64,000 nt of DNA from an uncultured Actinomycetes bacterium (GCA_937927875.1 CALEYV010000107.1:178-64177); one strand, 5' to 3'; shown: positions 53,516-64,000, counted from the first letter of the stretch. Numbers and translations: made by a program. Notes: generated by a model from the sequence alone, not told the origin.

Positions 53516-54190
53516 TCAGCCGTGCCCGAGGTGCTGGAAGTGATGCCAGGTGCCGACCCAGTTGATCGACGCGATGCCCAGCACGAGGCCGACCGCGACG
53601 GTGACCACGAGCAGGCTGAGCCGCGCCCGGGCGCCCGCCGCCCGGTGCTCCACCGCACCGCGGCCCGGCCGCTCGCGCCAGTCGGCGGCCGTGAGCGTGG
53701 CCGTCTCCTGCAGGTGCCCGAGGACGTGGATCAGGATCAGCGCCCCCCAGACGAAGAAGGTGGCCTGGTGGAGCCACAGGTACTGGTGGCCGACGTTGCG
53801 GCCGAGCGCCACGAGCAGCAGGCCGGTGCCGAGGAGGAGCAGCGACGAGAGGACCACGAGCGGTCCCGTCACGCGCAGGACGACCGGCGGCGGCCCTTTC
53901 TTCGAGTACGCGCGGTCGCCGGTGTAGTAGCGGGCGAAGCGATAGCCCGTGGTGGCGGTCTTCAGCAGCACCAGGGGCACGAGCAGCAGCCCGAGGAAGA
54001 CGTGCAGCGTGATCAGCTGGCGGATCTGCAGCACGGTGACGCCCTCGACGGCGAGGATGACGAACAGCGCGGCGCCGACGCCGCCGGTCAGCCGCGAGTT
54101 CCCCTCCGCGCCGCCGCCGGGGCCGGCCGCGAGCGACGGGTCGGCGGCCCCGGTCGGGCGCTCGGCGATCACGAGGTTGGCGAGGTTCAT
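53516..54190 (-). CDS. His-rich 5-TM membrane protein (cytochrome-b-like / DUF4405-like candidate)
   Basis: ATG at 54190 with an AGGAGC RBS, 25 nt after the ferredoxin stop. Conserved-looking His in the TM helices (TLHVFLG, WLHQATF, LIHVLGHL). Confidence 0.65.
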   Translation of the reverse strand: MNLANLVIAERPTGAADPSLAAGPGGGAEGNSRLTGGVGAALFVILAVEGVTVLQIRQLITLHVFLGLLLVPLVLLKTATTGYRFARYYTGDRAYSKKGPPPVVLRVTGPLVVLSSLLLLGTGLLLVALGRNVGHQYLWLHQATFFVWGALILIHVLGHLQETATLTAADWRERPGRGAVEHRAAGARARLSLLVVTVAVGLVLGIASINWVGTWHHFQHLGHG

Positions 54191-54215
54191 GGGTGCTCCT
54201 GGTCGGTGGCGGCGG

Positions 54216-54419
54216 TCATTCGTTGGTGAGGATGAGGGCCAGCTTCGGGCAGTTCTGCACCGCCCGGCGGGCGTGGGCGAGCAGGGCGTGCGGGATGACC
54301 TCGTCGTCGATGATCGGGTAGCCCCACTCATCGAGGCTGACCCACTCGGGGAAGAGCTCGGCGCAGACCCCGTGGGCCTCGCACTCGATCATGTTCACGC
54401 GCAACCGGTGCTTCTTCAC
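54216..54419 (-). CDS. Small ferredoxin (67 aa)
   Basis: GTGA overlap with the upstream gene. Pattern CEAHGVC...C typical of single-cluster actinobacterial ferredoxins. Confidence 0.75.
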   Translation of the reverse strand: MKKHRLRVNMIECEAHGVCAELFPEWVSLDEWGYPIIDDEVIPHALLAHARRAVQNCPKLALILTNE

Positions 54420-55732
54420 CGCCAGCTCCCGTCGGAGCGCGGGATCGGCAGCGCCGGCGGCTCGCCGGCCCGGCAGCGGCCCTGGGCGGCGTGGCGACGG
54501 ACCTCGTCGTCGAAGGCCCGCAGCGCGCTGGCCGCGAATCGGATCACCCCGTCCGGGTAGTGACAGGCGCCCCGGCCGAGCACCTGGGCCGAGACCTCCT
54601 CGAGCCGGCCCAGCATGGCCGGCACGTCGCGGCCGGCGGCGATGCTCGACATGGCGTCGGCGACGGCCCGGAGTCCGTGCACGCACGGGCCGCACTGGCC
54701 GGCGGTCTCGCCGGCGAGGTACTCGGCGACGCGCGCGGTCGCCACGAGCCCGCAGCACCCGGACGGGAAGGCGTACACGACGCCGGTGCCGAGCGACGCA
54801 CCGACGGTGCGCAGCGCCGCGTTGCTGAGCGGGACCGGCCATGCGTCTTCGGCCGCCACCCAGCTCCCGTAGTAGCCGCCGAGCAGGAACGCCGAGACCT
54901 GGGCGTCGAGGTCGCCGACCGCCCGCACCGCGTCGCGCAGCGGGGTGCCGATCGCCACCTCGCAGACGCCGGCCCGGGCGACCGCGCCGCCGATGGTGAG
55001 CAGCGCCGAGCCCGGCTCGTCGGGGGTGCCGAGGGCGCGGAACCAGTCCGGCCCGTACCGGGCGATGAGCGCGACGTGGGCGAGCGTCTCGACGTTCTGC
55101 ACCAGCGTGGGCCGGCCGTCGACGCCGCGCTCGAACGGCCGGGGCGGCGTGAACGTGGGCTTGGCGACGCCGCCGTTCACGTACTGCACGAGCGCCGTCT
55201 CCTCGCCGGCGACGTAGCGGGTCGGCACGCCGATCAGGCGCATCCGGGCCGCGTCGAGGCCCGCCGCGGCCCGGGCCTCGATCGCGCGCGCGACCGAGGT
55301 GATCGCCGGGCGGGCCGAGCGGTCGACCGCCACCGCCACCTCGTCGGCACCCACCGCGTCGGCGGCGAGCGACGCGCCGTCGAGCACGAGGTGGGGCAGG
55401 GCGGCGAGCAGGAGCCGGTCCTTGCGGCTGAGCGCTTCGCCCTCGCAGCCGTTGACGAGCACCACCGACCGGCCCCGCCGCTGGGCGACGGTGCGCAGCT
55501 TGCGGGCGGTCGGGAACGACGCCCCGCCCCGGCCCCGGAGGCCGGCCGCCTCCACGGCGTGGATCAGCGACCCGCCGTGCCGGTGGCCGCCTCGCCGCGG
55601 CGGCGGCCCGTAGGTGGCGAGGTGGTCGTCGAGGCTCACCGCGCCGTCGGGCCGGTAGCCGGCCAGGAGACGGGGGAGGCCCTCGGGGGCGGCGGGCCGG
55701 GGCGGTGCCACCCGGCTGGCGGTCGGCGTCAT
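54416..55732 (-). CDS. NuoF-like flavo-iron-sulfur protein (Complex I 51-kDa family, SLBB plus 4Fe-4S region), stand-alone
   Basis: ATG at 55732 in an ATGA overlap. GLRGRGGASFPTARKL, VLVNGCEGEALSRKD, RYVAGEETALV, ETAGQCGPCVHG, GACHYPDG. Confidence 0.85.
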   Translation of the reverse strand: MTPTASRVAPPRPAAPEGLPRLLAGYRPDGAVSLDDHLATYGPPPRRGGHRHGGSLIHAVEAAGLRGRGGASFPTARKLRTVAQRRGRSVVLVNGCEGEALSRKDRLLLAALPHLVLDGASLAADAVGADEVAVAVDRSARPAITSVARAIEARAAAGLDAARMRLIGVPTRYVAGEETALVQYVNGGVAKPTFTPPRPFERGVDGRPTLVQNVETLAHVALIARYGPDWFRALGTPDEPGSALLTIGGAVARAGVCEVAIGTPLRDAVRAVGDLDAQVSAFLLGGYYGSWVAAEDAWPVPLSNAALRTVGASLGTGVVYAFPSGCCGLVATARVAEYLAGETAGQCGPCVHGLRAVADAMSSIAAGRDVPAMLGRLEEVSAQVLGRGACHYPDGVIRFAASALRAFDDEVRRHAAQGRCRAGEPPALPIPRSDGSWR

Positions 55733-56868
55733 CCGCTCGCCCCACCCGCGGCCGCCGCCTGGGCCACGAGCGAGCCGCTCACGACCTGGCGGGCGAGGTC
55801 GGGGTTGACGGTGATCGTCACGTCGAGGGCGGGCCGCCCGCTGCTCTGCAGGCGCGTCGCCAGCCGGTCGCCGCGGAGGTTGATCACCGACCCCCGGTAC
55901 TGGTCGGGTTGCTGCCCGGGGCCGAGGGTGACGACGCTCGTGTCGAGCAGGATGCCCCCGCCCTCGACCGGCGGGCCGGTGAGCGCGATGTCGAGCTGTC
56001 CGCTGCGGCCGCCGTCCAGCGAGGCGGCGATGTGGACGGTCACGTTGCCGGCCCGGTCGGGGTTCGATTGGCTGATCGTGCCGCTCACCTGCGCGGAGAA
56101 GGGCAGGGCGGGCAGCGCGGCACCCGACGGAGCGGTGACGGCGGGGGAGGCCGCGCTGCTGGACGCGGTCGAGCTCGACGAGGCGCGGGCGAGGATGCTG
56201 TCCGGCGTCCCGGCCCGGCGCGCCCAGCCCGCCGCCAGCGGCCCGCCGGCCAGCCACACGACGAGGAGGATCGGCGCCAGCAGGCTGGCGCTCAGCCCGG
56301 CGATCCGCACGCCGGGGCGCTCCGGCCAGCCGGTGGCGAGCCGCCACCAGGCGGCCGCGATCACCGCGACGACGCAGGCGACATAGAGCGCGAGCACGAA
56401 CCCGATTCGGGTGTCGCTCCCGGTCCCGAGCCCGTGCACGACGACGAGCGGCCAGCACAGGTACGCGAACCAGTGCACGAACCGCCACGTCTGGTGGCGG
56501 ATCCGGTGCCGGAGGAGGCTCGTGACCATGAGCGCCAGCAGCACGTCGAAGGCGGCCGCGCCCAGCCCGAGCCACACCGGGCGGTACACGGACACGAACG
56601 GGATCACGGTGTCCTTCCACCCGATGGGCGCGAACGCGTCGACGACGACCGCGGTCACATGCACCCCGATCAGGGCGGTGGCGAGCAGCGACGAGTTGCG
56701 ATGGAGCAACTCGATGACGAACCGGGGCCAACCGGTGCCGGACCATCGGACGGAGGTCACGATGCCGAGCACGACGCTGAGCGTGAGGACGACGAGGGCG
56801 GCGAGGCCGCTGCCCCGGGCCAGGTACCAGAGCACGCTCGGGCTGCCGGACGCGGCGAGGAGGCTCAT
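55729..56868 (-). CDS. Ferric-reductase-like (MsrQ/YedZ-type) transmembrane protein with extracytoplasmic C-terminal domain
   Basis: 379 aa, 6 TM. His pairs in two helices (LLHRNSS...GVHV and VHWFAY...VVHGLG). Ser-rich linker, then about 150 aa of beta-rich sequence. Confidence 0.8.
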   Translation of the reverse strand: MSLLAASGSPSVLWYLARGSGLAALVVLTLSVVLGIVTSVRWSGTGWPRFVIELLHRNSSLLATALIGVHVTAVVVDAFAPIGWKDTVIPFVSVYRPVWLGLGAAAFDVLLALMVTSLLRHRIRHQTWRFVHWFAYLCWPLVVVHGLGTGSDTRIGFVLALYVACVVAVIAAAWWRLATGWPERPGVRIAGLSASLLAPILLVVWLAGGPLAAGWARRAGTPDSILARASSSSTASSSAASPAVTAPSGAALPALPFSAQVSGTISQSNPDRAGNVTVHIAASLDGGRSGQLDIALTGPPVEGGGILLDTSVVTLGPGQQPDQYRGSVINLRGDRLATRLQSSGRPALDVTITVNPDLARQVVSGSLVAQAAAAGGASG

Positions 56869-57794
56869 GCCGCGGCCTCGACCGGCCAGCCCGCCGTGCG
56901 CACGATCGTCCCGTCGGCGCGCACGAGCCGCGCCGCCAGTCCGAGCCCAATCAGCCAGCCCACGGCCGGCTCGCCGCGCACGATCGCGGCCGTGCTGGCG
57001 ATGTTGGCGTCGACGCAGGTCTGAGCGACCACGCTGACGGTCCGCCAGCAGGTCGCGGCCGGCTGGCCCGACCCGGGGTCGATGATGTGGTGCAGGGCGT
57101 CGTCGCCCCGCTGCCAGCGACGGACGGTGGTGCTCGAGGTGGCGAGGCCACCCGTCGTGATCGCCACCGTCTCGCCCGGGGCGTCCGGCGGTGCGGCGTG
57201 ATCGTCGGTGACCCGCACCGGCCAGCCATCGGTCCGCGTCTCGCCGGCGACCGCGATGTCACCACCGAGGCTGACGAGGACGCCGCCGTCCACCGTGCTG
57301 GCGATCGTGGCGGCGGCCCGGTCGACCGCGAAGGCCTTCGCCGTCGCGCCGAGGTCCAGCTCCACGCCGTCCGGCACCTGGACCGTGCTCCCGGTCCGGT
57401 CGACGACGATCGTGCGCCAACCCGGGACCTGCTCGACGATGCAGGTCAGCGGGTCACCGGTCGCGGCGACCGCCGCGAAGTCGCGGTCGTAGCCGAGGAC
57501 CCGCAGCGACCGCCCGATGGTGGGGTCCACGTCGCCGTCGGTGAGGCGGGCGGCCCGCAGCGCGACGTCGAGCGCGTCGAGGAGCACCGGGCCGACGCTG
57601 ACCGGCCGGCCGGCGCCCGCGTTGACGGCCATGAGCTCCGAGTCGGCCCGGAATCGGCTGCAGGCACGGTCGACCTCGGCAAGGACGTGGTCCAGTCGCG
57701 CTCGGGCTGCGGGCAGCGCGGCTCGCTCGGTCACGGCGAGGATGGCGGTGGTGCCCAGGGCGGGGAACGCCTCGGTCGCCCACGGCTCGGTCAC
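56865..57794 (-). CDS. apbE: FAD:protein FMN transferase
   Basis: 309 aa. GTG start in a GTGA overlap. SELMAVNA, DPTIG, DLGATAKAFAVD, GGLATSS, HHIIDPGSG. Confidence 0.9.
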   Translation of the reverse strand: MTEPWATEAFPALGTTAILAVTERAALPAARARLDHVLAEVDRACSRFRADSELMAVNAGAGRPVSVGPVLLDALDVALRAARLTDGDVDPTIGRSLRVLGYDRDFAAVAATGDPLTCIVEQVPGWRTIVVDRTGSTVQVPDGVELDLGATAKAFAVDRAAATIASTVDGGVLVSLGGDIAVAGETRTDGWPVRVTDDHAAPPDAPGETVAITTGGLATSSTTVRRWQRGDDALHHIIDPGSGQPAATCWRTVSVVAQTCVDANIASTAAIVRGEPAVGWLIGLGLAARLVRADGTIVRTAGWPVEAAA

Positions 57795-58105
57795 GTGCCC
57801 CCGGAGGTCGCGACGTGACGGTGGTGGGTCTGGACCGGGGCGGGCGCCGGCTGGAGGCTGGGGTCGGTGACGCTCGGGTCCACCGTGGTCGTGGTGGTGC
57901 TCGGTGCCGGCGCGGCCTGGGTGGGGGCGCCCGAGCCCGAGGACGGCGGCGGGTTGGTCGACGCGGAGCCGGAGGTGCCGGGGAGGGCCTGGGCGACCAG
58001 CGCCGAGAGGATCCCGGCCAGCGCCACGCCGCCGGCGGTGAGCCAGCGGGACAGGCGGGAGACCCGACGGAGCCCGTCGTCGCGGTCGCTCGCTCGGTGT
58101 CGCAT
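57791..58105 (-). CDS. Membrane-anchored Ser/Pro/Thr-rich peptide (104 aa)
   Basis: ATG at 58105 with a strong GGAGGA RBS. One TM (WLTAGGVALAGILSALVAQA), low-complexity tether, C-terminal HHRHVATSGGT. Stop overlaps the apbE start. Confidence 0.6.
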   Translation of the reverse strand: MRHRASDRDDGLRRVSRLSRWLTAGGVALAGILSALVAQALPGTSGSASTNPPPSSGSGAPTQAAPAPSTTTTTVDPSVTDPSLQPAPAPVQTHHRHVATSGGT

Positions 58106-58202
58106 CTCGTCCTCCAGGAGCCGGCGCCCGGGGGGGGCAGGCGCACCAGCCAGGGTCCCAGACCGGGGTGCCCGACCCGACCAGGAAACGGCAAAAAAAG
58201 GA

Positions 58203-59645
58203 CTAAGTCCGGCCGGCTGGGGCCTGGTTTGCCCCCTCGGCCCGGGGAGGGCGGGCGCCAGCCCGCAGCTCGACGGCGACCTCGAGCCCTCCGGAGGACC
58301 GCGAGCGGAGCTCGACGCGGCCGCCGTCGGCGGTAACGAGCTGGCGCACGATCGCCAGCCCCAGGCCGAAGCCCCCGTTGTCGCTGGGTGCGGCCGACCC
58401 CCGCCAGAAGCGGTCGAAGGCCCGGGCTCGGTCCTCGTCGCTCATCCCCGGGCCGTCGTCGCGGACCCAGACCTGGACCCGATCGCGACGGCGGCCCGCG
58501 CCCAGCGAGACGGTGGTCCCGGCCGGGGCCTGGGCGAGGGCGTTGTTCAGCAAGTTGTCGAGCACCTGCTCGAGGCGCTCGGGCGTGGCGCTCGCCCACA
58601 GCTCCGCCGGGACGTCCACCGTCAGCTGGACGTCGTGCTCGGCGGCGAACGCGAGCCACGCCTCGCGACGACCGACGATGACGGCGCCGATGTCGACGTT
58701 GGTCGGCTCCGAGGGCGCCCGCTCGGCGCGTGCCAACGCCAGCAGCCCGTCGACGAGCCGCGTGAGCCGCTCCACCTCCGCACGCGCTCCTTCGACGTCC
58801 TCGGCCGCGGCCGGCTCGACCTCGCTCTCCAGGTTCTCGAGTCGAAGCCGCAGCGCGGCGAGCGGCGTGCGGAGCTGGTGTGACGCGTCGGCGACGAACG
58901 CCTGCTGGGCCCCCATGAGCGACTCGAGCTGGGCCGCGGTGGTGTTGAACTCCTGGGCGAGCAGGCGCACCTCGGCCGGCCCCGGCGGGACGGGAGCGCG
59001 GGCGTCCAGGTTGCCGCGGCCCAGGCGCGACGCGGCCCGCCCCAGCTCGGCCAGCGGGCGGGTGACGGACCGCGCGACCAGCAGGCTGACGGCGAACACG
59101 ATGGCGAGCACGCCGCCCCCGATGCCGGCCAGCAGCAGCCAGTTGTTGCGCACCCGCTCGTTGACCGAGGACAGCGGGTGCGTCACGCGGACGACGCCGG
59201 TGACCTGGTTGCCCGATTCGACCGGCACCGCCACGGACCACAGGTCGCCGAGCGAGCGAGACGAACGAGTGCCGCTCGTCTCGTGACCGCTCAAGGCTCG
59301 AGCGATGTCGCCCGGCTGCAGCAGGTTGGGGCGCTCGTGCTCGGTGTCGCCCGGCGGCTCGGACGTGGCGACGCGGCGCCCGGCGGCGTCGGTGATGATC
59401 ACTCGGTCGCCCGCCTCATGCTGGTAGCGGGAGAGGAGCGCCCGCAGCTCGGCCTCGCCGGCCGCGTCAGGTCCCGATTCGAGGTTCTCCTCGGATCGGA
59501 CGGCGAGGGTGACGGCGTCCTGGTGCACGGACTGCTCGAGTCGACGCCGCTCGGAGCGCGCGAACGAGAACCCGAGCGGGACCTCGAGCCCGATCAGCAC
59601 GAGGACGGTGATGGTCAGGTAGCTGAGGAGCAGCCGCTTACGCAC
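58203..59645 (-). CDS. Sensor histidine kinase (2 TM, HAMP, HisKA, HATPase)
   Basis: 480 aa. H-box ADASHQLRTPL, N-box LLNNALAQ, DDGPGM, GFGLGLAIV. Confidence 0.9.
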   Translation of the reverse strand: MRKRLLLSYLTITVLVLIGLEVPLGFSFARSERRRLEQSVHQDAVTLAVRSEENLESGPDAAGEAELRALLSRYQHEAGDRVIITDAAGRRVATSEPPGDTEHERPNLLQPGDIARALSGHETSGTRSSRSLGDLWSVAVPVESGNQVTGVVRVTHPLSSVNERVRNNWLLLAGIGGGVLAIVFAVSLLVARSVTRPLAELGRAASRLGRGNLDARAPVPPGPAEVRLLAQEFNTTAAQLESLMGAQQAFVADASHQLRTPLAALRLRLENLESEVEPAAAEDVEGARAEVERLTRLVDGLLALARAERAPSEPTNVDIGAVIVGRREAWLAFAAEHDVQLTVDVPAELWASATPERLEQVLDNLLNNALAQAPAGTTVSLGAGRRRDRVQVWVRDDGPGMSDEDRARAFDRFWRGSAAPSDNGGFGLGLAIVRQLVTADGGRVELRSRSSGGLEVAVELRAGARPPRAEGANQAPAGRT

Positions 59646-60324
59646 TGGTACCCGAGCGGTTCCGGAGCCGGAAGCCGACCCCCCGGACGGTCTCGATCCA
59701 CGTCGGGTCGCCGAGCTTCTTGCGCAGCGAGGCCACGTGCACGTCGAGCGTCTTCGTCGGCCCGTACCAGTGGGGGTCCCAGACCGCCTCCAGGATGCGG
59801 CCCCGGCTGAAGACGGCTCCCGGGTCCTCGGCGAGCAGGGTCAGGAGGTCGAACTCCTTCGGCGTCAGCATCACGTCGCGGCCGTCGACGCGCACCTGCC
59901 GGGTCCGGGGGTCGATGGACAGCGTCCCGACCTGCAGCGGCGTGCTGTCCGCCACCCTGGTCGTTCCTCGGCGCGTGACGGCTCGGATCCGGGCGACGAG
60001 CTCCCGGAACCCGAACGGCTTCACCATGTAATCGTCGGCACCCAGCTCGAGTCCGACGACGCGGTCGACCTCTTCGGTCCGGGCCGTCACGACGATGATG
60101 GGGACGTCCGAGTCGGCTCGGATCTGACGACACACGTCGAACCCGTCCACGTCTGGCAGGCCCAGGTCCAGCAGCACGATGTCGGGACGGGGAGCCTCGT
60201 CCTTCACGCGCGCCGCGACCTGGTTGCCGCGCGTCGCACGCTCGACCTCGAAGCCCTCGCGAGTCAGCCCCTTCGCGAGCGGCGCGGCGATGGTTTCGTC
60301 GTCCTCGACGATGAGGACCAGCAC
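59638..60324 (-). CDS. OmpR-family response regulator
   Basis: 228 aa. LIVEDD, DIVLLDLGLPDVDG, KPF, winged-helix region LTPKEFDLL...VRGVGFRL. 8-nt overlap with the kinase gene. Confidence 0.92.
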   Translation of the reverse strand: MLVLIVEDDETIAAPLAKGLTREGFEVERATRGNQVAARVKDEAPRPDIVLLDLGLPDVDGFDVCRQIRADSDVPIIVVTARTEEVDRVVGLELGADDYMVKPFGFRELVARIRAVTRRGTTRVADSTPLQVGTLSIDPRTRQVRVDGRDVMLTPKEFDLLTLLAEDPGAVFSRGRILEAVWDPHWYGPTKTLDVHVASLRKKLGDPTWIETVRGVGFRLRNRSGTSA

Positions 60325-60489
60325 GCCTCCACCTTCTCATCAGCCCTGTGGGAGGCGGGTGCGCCTTATCCGAATCTTGGCGATTGGGAAGCTGGCGCGA
60401 CCGGGACGCCGCCCCGGTCCGCGAGGACCGGCCGGCCGCCCTACGGGACGAGGCGCACGACCGATTACGGAGGCTTCCTCACTATGTGG

Positions 60490-60504
60490 CAGACTCACTG
60501 TCTG
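60490..60504 (+). promoter_or_regulatory. Inverted repeat CAGAC-tcact-GTCTG abutting the marR start (candidate autoregulatory operator)
   Basis: 5-bp arms with a 5-nt spacer, immediately 5' of the ATG at 60505. Short, so chance occurrence is possible. It would be inside the CDS if ATG 60484 is the true start. Confidence 0.2.
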
Positions 60505-61020
60505 ATGACCCATGCTGCGAAGGGAGCGCCGGTGGGCGCCGGCTCGAAGGTTCCCCGGACCCCAGGCTCGGACCCGGTCGGCCAGCTGGCCGAGCTGCTG
60601 TTCCGGACCACCATGCGCTTGCGGCGCGGCTCGGCGAAGGAGCTCGCGCCCATCGGCGTCACCTTCGGCCAGGCCCGGGTGATGCGGGTCCTCGCCCGAG
60701 CGGACGGGCCGATGCGCATGGCCGACCTCGCCGCTGCGCTCGAGATCGTGCCCCGCTCGGTGACCACCGTCATCGACTCGCTCGAGGAGGCGGGCCTGGT
60801 CTGTCGTGAGCCCGACCCCCACGACCGGCGATCCGTCCTCGTGGCACCGACCGCGTCCGGTCAGGCCGCCCTCGAGCGCATGAACCGCGCTCGCCGCGCC
60901 ACCGCCGAAGACCTGTTCGGGCGGCTCAGCGAGCGGGAGCGAGCCACCCTGCTGAGCCTCCTCGTTGCCCTGAACGGGGACACCACCGGCACCGTGCGGT
61001 CGCACCGAGGGGCACGCTGA
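60505..61020 (+). CDS. MarR-family transcriptional regulator
   Basis: Winged-helix core GVTFGQARVMRVLA...MADLAAALEIVPRSVTTVIDSLEEAGLV.R.PDPHDRRS. Alternative ATG at 60484. Confidence 0.88.
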   Translation: MTHAAKGAPVGAGSKVPRTPGSDPVGQLAELLFRTTMRLRRGSAKELAPIGVTFGQARVMRVLARADGPMRMADLAAALEIVPRSVTTVIDSLEEAGLVCREPDPHDRRSVLVAPTASGQAALERMNRARRATAEDLFGRLSERERATLLSLLVALNGDTTGTVRSHRGAR

Positions 61021-62933
61021 TGGGCGCGCACGCGGGGCCGATGTGGGGCGCGATGCGATCGATGCGTCGCGACCAGTCGGTGACGGACGCCAAGGTGGCC
61101 AAGGGCACCGCGCGTCGGATCCTCCGGTTCGCCCGCCCGTACCGGAACATCCTGCTCTTCTTCCTCGGGGTCGTCGTCGTCGACGCCGTGATCGGCGCCA
61201 TCAACCCGCTGATCCTGCGCGAGATCATCAACCGCGGCATCCTGCGCCACAACTCGGGGCTCATCGTGAACCTGGCCCTGCTCGTGGCCGGCCTGGCGAT
61301 CGTCGACGCCGGCCTGTCGCTGGGACAGCGGCTGGTCTCGGCGAAGATCGGCGAGGGCCTGATCTACGACATGCGGACGAAGGTGTTCGACCACGTCCAG
61401 CGCATGCCGATCGCCTTCTTCACCCGCACCCAGACCGGCGCGCTCGTCACGCGGCTCAACAACGACGTGCTCGGCGCCCAGGAGGCGTTCACGGACGTCC
61501 TCTCGACGGTGATCGGCAACCTCATCAGCGTCGGCTTCATCCTCGTCGTGATGTTCCTGCTGTCATGGGAGCTGACCCTCGTCGCACTGCTCATCCTCCC
61601 GGTGTTCGTGCTCCCGGCCCGCTGGCTCGGCCGTCGCCTGCAGTCGATCACCCGCGAGGCCTACGCGCTCAACGCGCAGATGAACACGACGATGACCGAG
61701 CGGTTCAACGTCGCCGGCGCCCTACTCGTCAAGCTGTTCGGGCGGCCGAACGAGGAGACGAAGTCGTTCGCCGACCGGGCCGGGCGCGTCCGCGACATCG
61801 GCGTGATCCAAGCCATGTACGCGCGGTTCTTCTTCGTCGCCCTCACGCTCACCGCCGCCCTCGCGACCGCCCTCGTCTACGGCTGGGGCGGCGTGCTCGC
61901 CGTCCACGGCGCGCTGAACATCGGGACCGTCGTCGCGCTCACCGCCTACCTCGCCCGCCTGTACGGGCCGCTGACCCAGCTGTCGAACATCAACGTCGAC
62001 GTCATGACGACGCTGGTCTCGTTCGAGCGGGTGTTCGAGGTCCTGGACCTGCCGCCGATGATCGCCGAGAAGCCCGACGCGGTGGCCATCCCCCGCGGGC
62101 CGGCCCGGGTCCAGTTCGACCACGTCGAGTTTGCCTACCCGACCGCCGACGAGGTGTCGCTCGCCTCCCTCGAGTCGGTGGCGTCGCTCGTGCACACCCC
62201 GAGCGAGCAGATCCTCTACGACGTCAGCTTCAGCGTCGAGCCCGGGACGATGGCCGCGCTCGTCGGTCCGTCCGGGGCCGGCAAGACGACCATCTGCAAC
62301 CTCGTGCCCCGCCTCTACGACGTGCGCAGCGGCTCAGTGAGCATCAACGGCATCGACGTGCGCGACGCCACGCTCGACTCGCTGCGCTCCAGCATCGGGA
62401 TGGTCACCCAGGACGCCCACATGTTCCACGAGACCATCCGCTCGAACCTGCTCTATGCCAAGCCCGACGCCACGGACGCCGAGCTGCTGGCCGCGCTCGA
62501 CGCGTCGCAGATCGGCCCGCTCATCACCTCGCTGCCCGACGGGCTCGACACCACGGTCGGGGACCGGGGCTACCGGCTCTCCGGCGGCGAGAAGCAGCGG
62601 CTGGCCATCGCGCGGCTGCTGCTGAAGGCGCCCGACATCGTGGTGCTCGACGAGGCCACGGCCCACCTCGACTCGGAGTCCGAGCTGCTGGTCCAAGAGG
62701 CGCTCCGGACGGCGCTGGCGGGCCGGACATCGCTCGTGATCGCCCACCGGCTCTCGACCGTGCGGGACGCGGACCAGATCCTCGTCGTCGACGCGGGACG
62801 GATCGTCGAGCGCGGTTCGCACGACGAGCTGCTCGCCGAGGACGGGCTCTACGCCGAGCTGTACCGCACCCAGTTCGAGCGTCAGGCCGTCCACGGCCAC
62901 CCGCTCGCCAGTCCCGCCAACCAGCCCGCGTAG
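61020..62933 (+). CDS. ABC exporter, fused permease/ATPase (MsbA/MdlB-like)
   Basis: 637 aa. The ATG overlaps the marR stop by 1 nt. 6 TM, Walker A GPSGAGKTT, signature LSGGEKQR, Walker B IVVLDEATAHLD. Confidence 0.92.
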   Translation: MGAHAGPMWGAMRSMRRDQSVTDAKVAKGTARRILRFARPYRNILLFFLGVVVVDAVIGAINPLILREIINRGILRHNSGLIVNLALLVAGLAIVDAGLSLGQRLVSAKIGEGLIYDMRTKVFDHVQRMPIAFFTRTQTGALVTRLNNDVLGAQEAFTDVLSTVIGNLISVGFILVVMFLLSWELTLVALLILPVFVLPARWLGRRLQSITREAYALNAQMNTTMTERFNVAGALLVKLFGRPNEETKSFADRAGRVRDIGVIQAMYARFFFVALTLTAALATALVYGWGGVLAVHGALNIGTVVALTAYLARLYGPLTQLSNINVDVMTTLVSFERVFEVLDLPPMIAEKPDAVAIPRGPARVQFDHVEFAYPTADEVSLASLESVASLVHTPSEQILYDVSFSVEPGTMAALVGPSGAGKTTICNLVPRLYDVRSGSVSINGIDVRDATLDSLRSSIGMVTQDAHMFHETIRSNLLYAKPDATDAELLAALDASQIGPLITSLPDGLDTTVGDRGYRLSGGEKQRLAIARLLLKAPDIVVLDEATAHLDSESELLVQEALRTALAGRTSLVIAHRLSTVRDADQILVVDAGRIVERGSHDELLAEDGLYAELYRTQFERQAVHGHPLASPANQPA

Positions 62934-62960
62934 CCAGCCGCCGCGGGCGCGGCGACCGGC

Positions 62961-63950
62961 TCAGTGGTGGTCGGCGAACTCGATGAAGTCGTACGGGTAG
63001 CCGCGGGGGAAGGCGCTGGCCCAGAACAACTGGATGTTCTGCTGCTCGTCGAGGTCGAACTCGACCGAGGCCAGGTTGTCCTCGAGCTGCTCGAGGCTCC
63101 GAGCGCCGATGATCGGCGCCGTGACTCCGGGCCGGTTGGACACCCAGTTCAGCGCCACCTGGGCCGACGTCTTGCCGGTGTCGGCCGCCACCTTTCCGAC
63201 CGCGTCGACGATGCGCCACGCCCGGTCGTCGAGCCGGTAGGTGAAGGTGATCGGCTCCTCGGCGTCGCCGCCCCGGGTACCGGTCGGCAGGTCCTCGCCC
63301 CGGCGGTACTTGCCGGTCAGGATCCCGCCCGCCAGCGGGCTCCAGGGGATCACGCCGAGGCCCTCGGCCTGGCAGAGCGGCAGCAGCTCGCGCTCGATGT
63401 CGCGGGTCACGAGCGAGTACTCGGGCTGCAGGCATGAGAACCGCTCCCAGCCGTGCAGGGCCGACTTCCCCAGCGCGGTGGCGAGGTGCCAGGCCGCGAA
63501 GTTGCTCGCCCCCAGGTAGCGAACCTTGCCCTGCTCGACCAGGTCGTCGAGCGTCGCCAGGGTCTCCTCGAGCGGGGTCCGGTCGTCCCAGCAGTGGACC
63601 TGGTAAAGGTCGATCCAGTCCGTGCCGAGCCGGCGAAGCGAGGCCTCGACGCCGAGGCGGATGTGCCGGCGCGACAGCCCGATGTCGTTGGGCCCGGGCC
63701 CGGTCGCGAAGCGGACCTTCGTCGCCAGCACCACCTCGTCCCGCTTGGCGGCGATGGCCCGGCCGGTGATCTCCTCCGAGACCCCCTCGTTGTAGACGTC
63801 GGCGGTGTCGATGAAGTTGCCGCCCGCGTCGAGGAAGCGGTCGACCATCTGGCGGCTGGTCGCCTCGTCGGCCTCCCGGCCGAAGGTCATGGCGCCGAGG
63901 CACAGCTCCGATACGCGTATCCCGGTCTTGCCCAGCGGTCGCAGGTCCAT
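62961..63950 (-). CDS. Aldo/keto reductase
   Basis: 329 aa. [34 protein letters not shown]. Confidence 0.9.
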
Positions 63951-64000
63951 GGCTTCCTCTCGTCGGGGGGTGCGCGATCCTCGCCCGGGCTGCCGGCGAC

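Follow-up and report, generated by a model that had tools for sequence, protein, structure and literature searches.

MsrQ-like systems, as described by Meheust et al. (2021, eLife 10:e66878) and Huang et al. (2024, mSystems 9:e00375-24), combine an ApbE-type flavin mononucleotide (FMN) transferase with a di-haem protein of the PF01794 family that has six transmembrane (TM) helices, and an FMN_bind gene provides the flavinylated partner. Clusters of this kind number 1797, mostly in Actinobacteria, and for the 31 that include a NuoF-like PF10589 protein, NAD(P)H was proposed as the cytosolic electron donor (PMC8238504). Here we describe six minus-strand genes, between positions 58105 and 53516 of a 64,000-nucleotide stretch of DNA from an uncultured Actinomycetes bacterium (GCA_937927875.1, CALEYV010000107.1:178-64177; GC content ~75%), referred to as the window, which belongs to a metagenomic contig of Acidimicrobiia. 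They encode a 104-residue membrane peptide (g1), an ApbE-type enzyme, an MsrQ-like protein, a NuoF-like protein, a ferredoxin, and a five-helix membrane protein (g6). The locus shares the ApbE enzyme and the six-helix di-haem protein with the published systems and falls under their operational definition, a PF01794 gene clustered with an apbE or FMN_bind gene, as its PF01794 gene adjoins the PF02424 gene. The FMN_bind partner, which is typical of MsrQ-like systems without being obligatory, is missing, and a disordered single-pass peptide is encoded beside ApbE instead. Further differences from the published systems are an extra TM helix and a beta domain on the MsrQ-like protein, an ApbE enzyme without signal peptide, and the conserved presence of a ferredoxin and of a putative second cytochrome b. 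The original prediction for this DNA did not recognise the gene combination. The trio of ApbE, MsrQ-like and NuoF-like proteins was in fact already listed by Meheust et al. (PMC8238504), and the locus belongs to a catalogued class rather than to a new kind of system; no experimentally characterised member of the class was found in the literature searched. With moderate confidence, we propose from the sequence comparisons described below that g1 would be the substrate of ApbE within an NAD(P)H-fed electron-export chain of the MsrQ-like kind, in which it probably replaces the folded FMN_bind carrier and offers its last four residues, [ST]G[GA][ST]-COOH, as the ApbE target.

The g1 gene (57791 to 58105, minus strand) encodes a single-pass membrane protein for which no family match was found in Pfam or NCBIfam. 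Its conserved, Arg-rich N-terminus (D.GLRRVSRLTRW) is followed by a predicted TM helix (57980 to 58042, approximately residues 22 to 42; a hydrophobic segment is present in all orthologues), the sequence LPGxS, a linker rich in Ala, Ser, Thr, Pro, and Gly, and a conserved C-terminal 22-mer. This agrees with the earlier description of g1 as a membrane-tethered peptide. As the N-terminus is Arg-rich and the tail almost uncharged, the positive-inside rule predicts an N-in/C-out topology. The same description held that none of the six products carries a flavinylation site, and this part has to be revised: g1 ends with H-V-A-T-S-G-G-T-COOH, and its terminal S-G-G-T codons (57794 to 57805) are predicted to form a flavinylation motif with Thr104 as the FMN acceptor.

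A genome scan gave 80 species-level loci, all in metagenome-assembled genomes (MAGs), from Acidimicrobiia, Thermoleophilia (Solirubrobacterales, Gaiellaceae), and Streptosporangiaceae; some long-read assemblies carry frameshifts. In 75 of the 80 loci a g1-like open reading frame (ORF) immediately precedes ApbE or, if ApbE is absent, the MsrQ-like gene. An exact [ST]G[GAS][ST]-stop was found in 69 of 76 g1 orthologues (SGGS 32, SGSS 7, SGST 7, SGAS 5, SGGT 4, SGAT 4, TGAS 4, TGGS 3, and TGSS 3), compared with about 5 of 11,450 other ORFs of at least 50 residues in the same loci (~0.04%). A phmmer search with the window g1 against 1.84 billion representatives returned 174 clusters at E ≤ 1e-3. 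Among the best 150 of these, 116 end exactly in [ST]G[GAS][ST] and 4 more have the motif at most three residues from the end; the remainder includes several SRGS or TRGS ends, and most others resemble fragments or frameshifted fusions. A profile of the 50 N-terminal g1 residues retrieved nothing at E ≤ 1e-3 from 5.8 billion proteins. In 182 non-redundant g1 tails the last 22 residues are in a fixed register, L(-21)-x-P-P-x-x-P-P ... [T/S](-11) ... V(-5)-V(-4)-S(-3)-G(-2)-G/A/S(-1)-S/T(0), with Gly at -2 in 100%, Ser or Thr at -3 in 100% (Ser in 93%), and Ser or Thr at position 0 in 100% (90% and 10%, respectively). By sequence comparison, no other part of the g1-family proteins is conserved as strongly as the C-terminal [ST]G[GAS][ST]. 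The other family traits are an N-terminal segment RDxxLxRVxxxT[RK] and one hydrophobic helix followed by (L/V/F)PG(H/T/N). The tail beyond the helix comprises 34 to 126 residues (median, 64), of which 6% are charged in the 182 tails. The linker within it is hypervariable, rich in Ala, Ser, Thr, Pro, and Gly and in some members composed of tandem repeats, and behaves like a spacer of variable length. Two g1 proteins with perfect repeats, seven copies of NQGTGQS (L023:6374-6844) and three copies of GGSSAGGAIA (L072:5539-5982), have kept both the N-terminus and the terminal motif.

The g1 ending resembles a known type of ApbE target. It deviates from the canonical D-x-x-[S/T]-G-A-[S/T] site, having no Asp at -6 and Gly at -1, and matches by sequence an [S/T]GA[S/T]-like target whose acceptor would be the last residue of the protein. 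DUF2271 and DUF3570 were found by Meheust et al. through a conserved motif in the neighbour of an orphan apbE gene; g1 likewise has a conserved, relaxed [S/T]GA[S/T]-like core and is co-localised with apbE. The minimal flavinylation motif comprises seven residues, in which Ser is accepted, and exchange of its Asp for Ala had only minor effects (Bertsova 2019, cited in the review PMC12052999). In the eight window proteins inspected, the relaxed pattern occurred only at the g1 end and at one internal site of ApbE (TGST, residue 134), and no match to FMN_bind (PF04205) was obtained at E ≤ 0.1, so that the reported absence of this domain from the six products stands. The filtered ORFs within 7 kb in the 80 loci contained neither an FMN_bind domain nor a Dxx[ST]GA[ST] sequence save one unrelated match.

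Two described cases show that ApbE can act on short, unstructured termini. The synthetic Flavin-tag (Tong et al. 2021; PMC12052999) is a seven-residue sequence that works best at the N- or C-terminus and is flavinylated on its last Ser or Thr. It is an engineered DxxSGAT sequence, whereas g1 would be a natural counterpart without the Asp, mostly VVSGGS, with the acceptor at the true C-terminus. In FMN_red proteins, a motif on an unstructured C-terminal extension was experimentally confirmed to be flavinylated (Huang et al. 2024; PMC11334425), and there the FMN is delivered to a binding site elsewhere, as would be the case for g1. The FMN_red tail is attached in cis to a folded flavoprotein, whereas the g1 tail belongs to a separate, membrane-anchored polypeptide. 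We found no mention of a small g1-type protein in Meheust et al. 2021 or Huang et al. 2024, and no paper on a g1-type substrate in the literature searched.

The g1 stop codon overlaps the GTG start codon of ApbE, and several trivial explanations were considered. The terminal motif is retained where g1 and ApbE are separated by gaps of +20 to +29 nucleotides and where no ApbE gene is adjacent, and it is therefore not a product of the gene overlap. The locus recurs in three other assemblies, one of which is ~2% divergent, and as the g1/ApbE junction is identical in all of them, an assembly frameshift at this point is excluded. The same finding rules out a split ApbE, in which g1 and ApbE would be one membrane-anchored enzyme whose frames would be fused by an extra G in the GGGGG run at ~57800; moreover, the genes remain distinct in ~70 species, the gap between them ranging from -19 to +29 nucleotides. 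Programmed frameshifting at the overlap was likewise dismissed, as no slippery site is conserved and the spacing varies. Five apparent g1-ApbE fusions in the databases (P0246, P0264, P0378, P0261, and P0268) resemble frameshifted translations or truncated products and seem to be assembly errors.

Small ORFs of the g1 type are likely under-annotated. On a 3.54-Mb metagenomic contig no gene was called upstream of ApbE at the place where g1 is expected (L086:7465-8078). One database entry (P0367, 310 residues) joins, by read-through, the C-terminal half of a g6-like protein to an entire g1-like protein with the end VVSGGS; therefore g6 lies directly upstream of g1 in that genome. A 502-residue entry (P0093) was called as a fusion of g1 with the MsrQ-like protein, and a frameshift near the g1 end is probable in this case.

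The ApbE-type FAD:protein FMN transferase (56865 to 57794, minus strand) was confirmed by a match to PF02424 (2e-48) and by its active-site motifs: it aligns to the solved structures 1VRM and 4XDT with DPTxG, DLGAxAK, and HHIIDP retained, and 6NXI was also matched. As its score for NF007774 is 57 bits and thus below the equivalog cut-off of 498 bits, it is a family member and not an equivalog of Escherichia coli ApbE. The N-terminal sequences of the window enzyme and ~70 orthologues contain no signal peptide, lipobox, TM helix, or hydrophobic segment, and in these orthologues the protein starts 10 to 25 residues ahead of the first beta-strand. This missing export signal had been passed over in the first description of the locus. 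ApbE enzymes are typically secreted lipoproteins, and cytoplasmic ones exist as well (PMC12052999); extracytosolic ApbEs require a flavin adenine dinucleotide (FAD) exporter (PMC9973259), and neither such an exporter nor any other transporter is conserved among the ORF clusters of the 80 loci. Given that ApbE lacks an export signal and that its neighbourhood encodes no FAD exporter, we propose flavinylation in the cytoplasm, which would make FAD export unnecessary. The simplest way to reconcile this with an outward-facing tail is probably that g1 is flavinylated while unfolded in the cytoplasm and then translocated.

The third gene (55729 to 56868, minus strand) encodes the MsrQ-like protein, which matches Ferric_reduct (PF01794; 3e-7, residues 21 to 141) with a score of 31 bits at a cut-off of 28. 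Its MsrQ/NOX-type ferric-reductase domain (FRD; 56239 to 56868) has six TM helices with His pairs in two of them, H56 and H70 in TM2 and H132 and H145 in TM4, as originally described, and all four residues are invariant in 82 sequences. The pairs are predicted to form two bis-His haem b sites. An AlphaFold2 model with a predicted local distance difference test (pLDDT) score of 83 shows the six TM helices and a short helix, followed by a disordered linker (residues 233 to 248) and an eight-stranded all-beta domain (55756 to 56100; residues 257 to 371) with pLDDT above 90. In Foldseek searches the TM part matched SpNOX (8QTA), NOX5 (5O0T), and STEAP with a probability of 1.0, and the beta domain gave only weak matches to avidin/streptavidin-like barrels in the PDB (E ≥ 0.09). 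Each of the 80 loci encodes the beta domain, which the full-length homologues listed have as well, and the MsrQ-like protein including this domain has more than 1560 homologues at E ≤ 1e-5.

The topology of MsrQ and NOX proteins is established and served as reference for the helix count. Given this topology, the MsrQ-like protein would lack the first helix of MsrQ/NOX, because the Ferric_reduct core aligns with its TM1 to TM4. Its Arg-rich loops are 1-2, 3-4, and 5-6, which predicts an N-out/C-out orientation and places the beta domain outside, consistent with the extracytoplasmic C-terminal domain proposed before. Directly after TM6 and ahead of the disordered linker and the beta domain lies the segment G-W-A-R-R-A-G-T-P, in which G214, G220, and P222 do not vary among the 82 sequences and W215, A219, and T221 are shared by at least 90% of them. 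We infer that this segment is a candidate flavin or phosphate contact. Like NOX, STEAP, and MsrQ with Fre, the protein would hold a stack of two b haems by means of two His pairs and pass NAD(P)H electrons outward. Unlike these, it has no fused FAD/NADPH dehydrogenase domain and would receive electrons from the separate NuoF-like protein and ferredoxin; it lacks the first TM helix and has, in addition, a seventh element made up of TM6 and the beta domain.

The NuoF-like protein (54416 to 55732, minus strand) is a soluble, putative NAD(P)H dehydrogenase with matches to Complex1_51K (1e-35) and NADH_4Fe-4S (2e-16), a weak match to SLBB, and similarity to chain 1 of Nqo1 (2FUG; 2e-46). The motifs GLRGRGGAxFP, GEETAL, and NVETLA for NADH and FMN binding are retained, as had been recognised, and the FMN/NADH-binding fold and the SLBB/N3 region are common to this protein and NuoF/Nqo1 of complex I. 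In contrast to complex I NuoF, it scores 206 bits at a TIGR01959 equivalog cut-off of 559, has no NuoE or NuoG partner conserved in the loci, in accordance with the first description, and has an altered N3 site: the motif SCGxCxPC reads AGQCGPC at residues 344 to 350 (54700 to 54760, minus strand), so that the first Cys is replaced by Ala344, which is invariant in 72 orthologues. Its invariant Cys residues are C327, C347, C350, C390, and C420. The protein is predicted to carry FMN and one iron-sulfur cluster, for which C327 or C420, both extra to the N3 motif, could supply the fourth ligand.

The ferredoxin (54216 to 54419, minus strand) is a 67-residue, single-cluster protein with a Fer4_15 match (8e-9) and the pattern CxxHxxC...CP, as expected from the earlier assignment. 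Its C13, C19, and C57 do not vary across 77 sequences, and the solved structures nearest to it are those of the ferredoxin 4ID8 and the ferredoxin-P450 (CYP143) fusion 8AMQ. The last gene, g6 (53516 to 54190, minus strand), encodes a 224-residue protein with five TM helices, a conclusion that stands from the first analysis, and with four invariant His residues (H63, H141, H155, and H159). Pfam returned no match for g1 and no real match for g6, and the window g6 itself does not match PF01292; of 42 g6 homologues, however, 12 match Ni_hydr_CYTB (PF01292; best, 9e-7) and 3 match DUF4405. The AlphaFold2 model of g6 (pLDDT 83) has five long helices, for which Foldseek found no significant fold match in the PDB (helical bundles at E ≥ 0.23). 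The His pattern and these relatives make g6 a probable second di-haem cytochrome b with a distant relationship to Ni_hydr_CYTB and DUF4405, a role overlooked in the original prediction. Of 81 loci, 58 contain a g6 gene, and its position differs among them.

The organisation of the six genes was read directly from the sequence and agrees with the coordinates first given. Four consecutive junctions are 4-nucleotide stop/start overlaps (57791 to 57794, GTGA; 56865 to 56868, ATGA; 55729 to 55732, ATGA; 54416 to 54419, GTGA), and a 25-nucleotide spacer containing AGGAG precedes g6, whose start at 54190 is backed by 224-residue homologues. Public collections give the same boundaries for all six products, of which only the ferredoxin carries a name there (labelled 'ferredoxin' in 13 of 27 cluster members). 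The domain assignments to ApbE, Ferric_reduct, Complex1_51K, NADH_4Fe-4S, SLBB, and Fer4_15 were reproduced with Pfam. In tblastn searches with the window proteins, gene order and strand were the same throughout the 80 loci: ApbE lies upstream of the MsrQ-like gene in 72, the NuoF-like gene downstream of it in 78, and the ferredoxin gene after the latter in 77, most exceptions being contig ends. Such an arrangement is far from chance. In seven loci (L013, L015, L016, L018, L022, L023, and L083) ApbE is not adjacent and g1 is located 9 to 126 nucleotides upstream of the MsrQ-like gene.

Two candidates for a cultured organism with the exact system were rejected, a relative on a 3.5-Mb JGI contig, which is metagenomic, and Allobranchiibius sp. 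CTAmp26 (GCA_017565405.1, L084:8001-14147), a species strain and not a MAG, which has only a reduced variant. In the latter, g6 and the genes for a response regulator and a histidine kinase are located on one strand and those for the ferredoxin, a NuoF-like protein of 360 residues, a short Ferric_reduct protein, and ApbE on the other.

Taken together, domains, haem-ligating His residues, topology, and synteny fit the transmembrane electron exporter fed by NAD(P)H that was put forward at the outset. In the proposed chain, each step of which is deduced from cofactor motifs and homology, NAD(P)H would reduce the FMN of the NuoF-like protein, and electrons would pass to its iron-sulfur cluster, then to the 67-residue ferredoxin, and via the inner and the outer haem b of the MsrQ/NOX-type protein across the membrane. 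The outer haem would reduce an FMN linked by a phosphoester bond to the C-terminal Ser or Thr of g1, which might dock near this haem at the GWARRAGTP segment and/or on the beta domain and would deliver electrons to an external acceptor, for example Fe(III), humics, O2, or a protein. The TM helix of g1, with its N-terminus inside, may occupy the place of the missing first FRD helix, and g6 may connect the flavin outside with the quinone pool. ApbE would flavinylate the unfolded g1 tail in the cytoplasm ahead of its translocation; we infer the flavinylation itself, the position of the tail, and this order of events from the features of g1 and ApbE described above.

A related chain is the flavin-based extracellular electron transfer of Listeria (Ndh2, EetA/B, PplA, FmnA/B), which also leads from NADH to the outside of a monoderm cell and ends on a membrane-anchored carrier flavinylated by ApbE, as is proposed here. 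PplA has folded FMN_bind domains, and electrons cross the membrane via quinone, compared with haems in the present case. FmnB is extracellular and requires the FAD exporter EetB/FmnA (PMC9973259).

Several observations speak against g1 as a flavinylated carrier. The motif has no canonical Asp, Gly instead of Ala is found at -1 in 71% and Ser instead of Thr at the acceptor position in 90%, and no report of an Ala-to-Gly exchange at -1 being tried was found in the literature. Seven of the 76 orthologues deviate (SRGS, SSVS, STTS, or two to three extra residues). An ApbE without signal peptide is at odds with a g1 tail facing outward, and no precedent for the export of a pre-flavinylated peptide was found in the literature. 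The Arg pair in the N-terminal region of g1 is not conserved: it precedes the hydrophobic segment in some clades only, as TRRW or TRRF in Solirubrobacterales, and is replaced by TKG or TKT in most Acidimicrobiales. Export of pre-flavinylated g1 by the twin-arginine translocation (Tat) pathway was therefore discarded as a general answer. By its sequence, a small-x-small site before LPG could allow cleavage, and g1 would then be released rather than tethered. Apart from a near-invariant Y324, conserved residues of the cofactor type are absent from the beta domain. In Allobranchiibius, the Ferric_reduct protein comprises only 187 residues without a beta domain, and the 129-residue ORF with a TM helix and a Ser/Thr-rich part ends with QTHSS and not with the motif.

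In an alternative reading, g1 would be a structural or assembly subunit only, for example a stand-in for the missing first FRD helix, with the SGGS-type end serving as a docking or processing signal that has nothing to do with flavin and ApbE acting on another substrate whose gene is elsewhere or only binding or hydrolysing FAD in the cytoplasm. The location of ApbE and the mostly SGGS motif without Asp would then pose no difficulty, some ApbE/Ftp enzymes do hydrolyse FAD (PMC4767422), and g1 remains next to the MsrQ-like gene in the 7 to 8 loci without adjacent ApbE. However, both Ftp classes still transfer FMN when given a substrate (PMC4767422), the g1 end fits the ApbE specificity position by position (hydrophobic at -5/-4, Ser/Thr at -3, Gly at -2, small at -1, Ser/Thr at 0), g1 and ApbE are translationally coupled in most loci, and no other candidate site is present in the neighbourhood. 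We consider a purely structural role of g1 unlikely.

The similarity of the TM domain to bacterial NOX, NOX5, and STEAP, its closest structural relatives, and its membership in the family of MsrQ suggest another function, either that of an oxidase reducing O2 to superoxide or H2O2, or that of an envelope repair system fed as MsrQ feeds MsrP, with g1 as an accessory. The two-component system next to the operon would be in line with an inducible stress response. Against this, ORF clustering revealed no extracytoplasmic reductase, of the MsrP type or any other, conserved in the 80 loci, a dedicated ApbE and the g1 motif would be superfluous for a plain NOX with a cytoplasmic FAD domain, and the loci, judged by record titles, belong for the most part to MAGs from soils such as peat, bog, and permafrost. 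We regard an oxidase or repair function as improbable, more so than a structural g1. Least of all do we expect FMN on Thr221 of the GWARRAGTP segment outside TM6, by analogy to the membrane subunits NqrB and RnfD with covalent FMN: the segment is strongly conserved and expected near the outer haem, but its A-G-T is neither G-A-T nor G-G-T and does not fit [ST]G[AG][ST], the conserved g1 terminus would be left unexplained, and the site would be extracytoplasmic, too, so that the problem of the ApbE location would persist.

Directly upstream of g1, on the same strand, are the genes for a histidine kinase with sCache_3_2 and HAMP domains (58203 to 59645) and an OmpR-type response regulator (59638 to 60324), identified with Pfam, which overlap each other at their stop and start codons. 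In most of the 80 loci such a pair occurs no more than 7 kb away, with differing position and orientation; the adjacent pair likely regulates the operon and would control its expression. The 97 nucleotides (58106 to 58202) that separate the stop codon of the kinase from the start of g1 contain a run of seven T right after the palindrome CCGGCCGG, which could be a terminator dividing the regulator genes from the operon, although it was not called by a consensus scan. Beyond the response regulator (~60480 to 64000), the window encodes a MarR regulator, a fused ABC_membrane/ABC_tran transporter of 637 residues, and an aldo-keto reductase. The same trio lies a few kilobases upstream of ApbE in the relative with the 3.5-Mb contig (L086:1688-5131), where no adjacent kinase/regulator pair was called; the observations on the MarR, ABC, and aldo-keto genes also cover L001:222-3688, and the ORF cluster including the ABC transporter covers 15 loci.

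A bolder and only tentative extension of our proposal is that g1 founds a new class of ApbE substrates, a natural 'flavin tag' with FMN on the last residue of a disordered peptide that is anchored or released by signal peptidase. It would be made in the cytoplasm by an ApbE without signal peptide and then threaded outward, to serve as a tethered or secreted shuttle from the outer haem through the monoderm wall to insoluble or distant acceptors. For specialists, the surprising elements would be the natural C-terminal flavin tag and a cytoplasmic ApbE that serves an exported target. If g1 is flavinylated, the substrates of ApbE extend beyond folded flavin-binding domains, and small unannotated ORFs beside 'orphan' apbE genes merit a systematic search. 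The enzyme without signal peptide raises the testable question of where and when an exported protein is flavinylated and whether translocation of a peptide bearing flavin is possible. If the proposal is true, g1 would represent a minimal natural design of a covalent, tethered flavin electron carrier, with relevance to Flavin-tag biotechnology. The finding would also bear on extracellular electron transfer in Actinomycetota of soil and peat, habitats with abundant and mostly uncultured Acidimicrobiia and Thermoleophilia.

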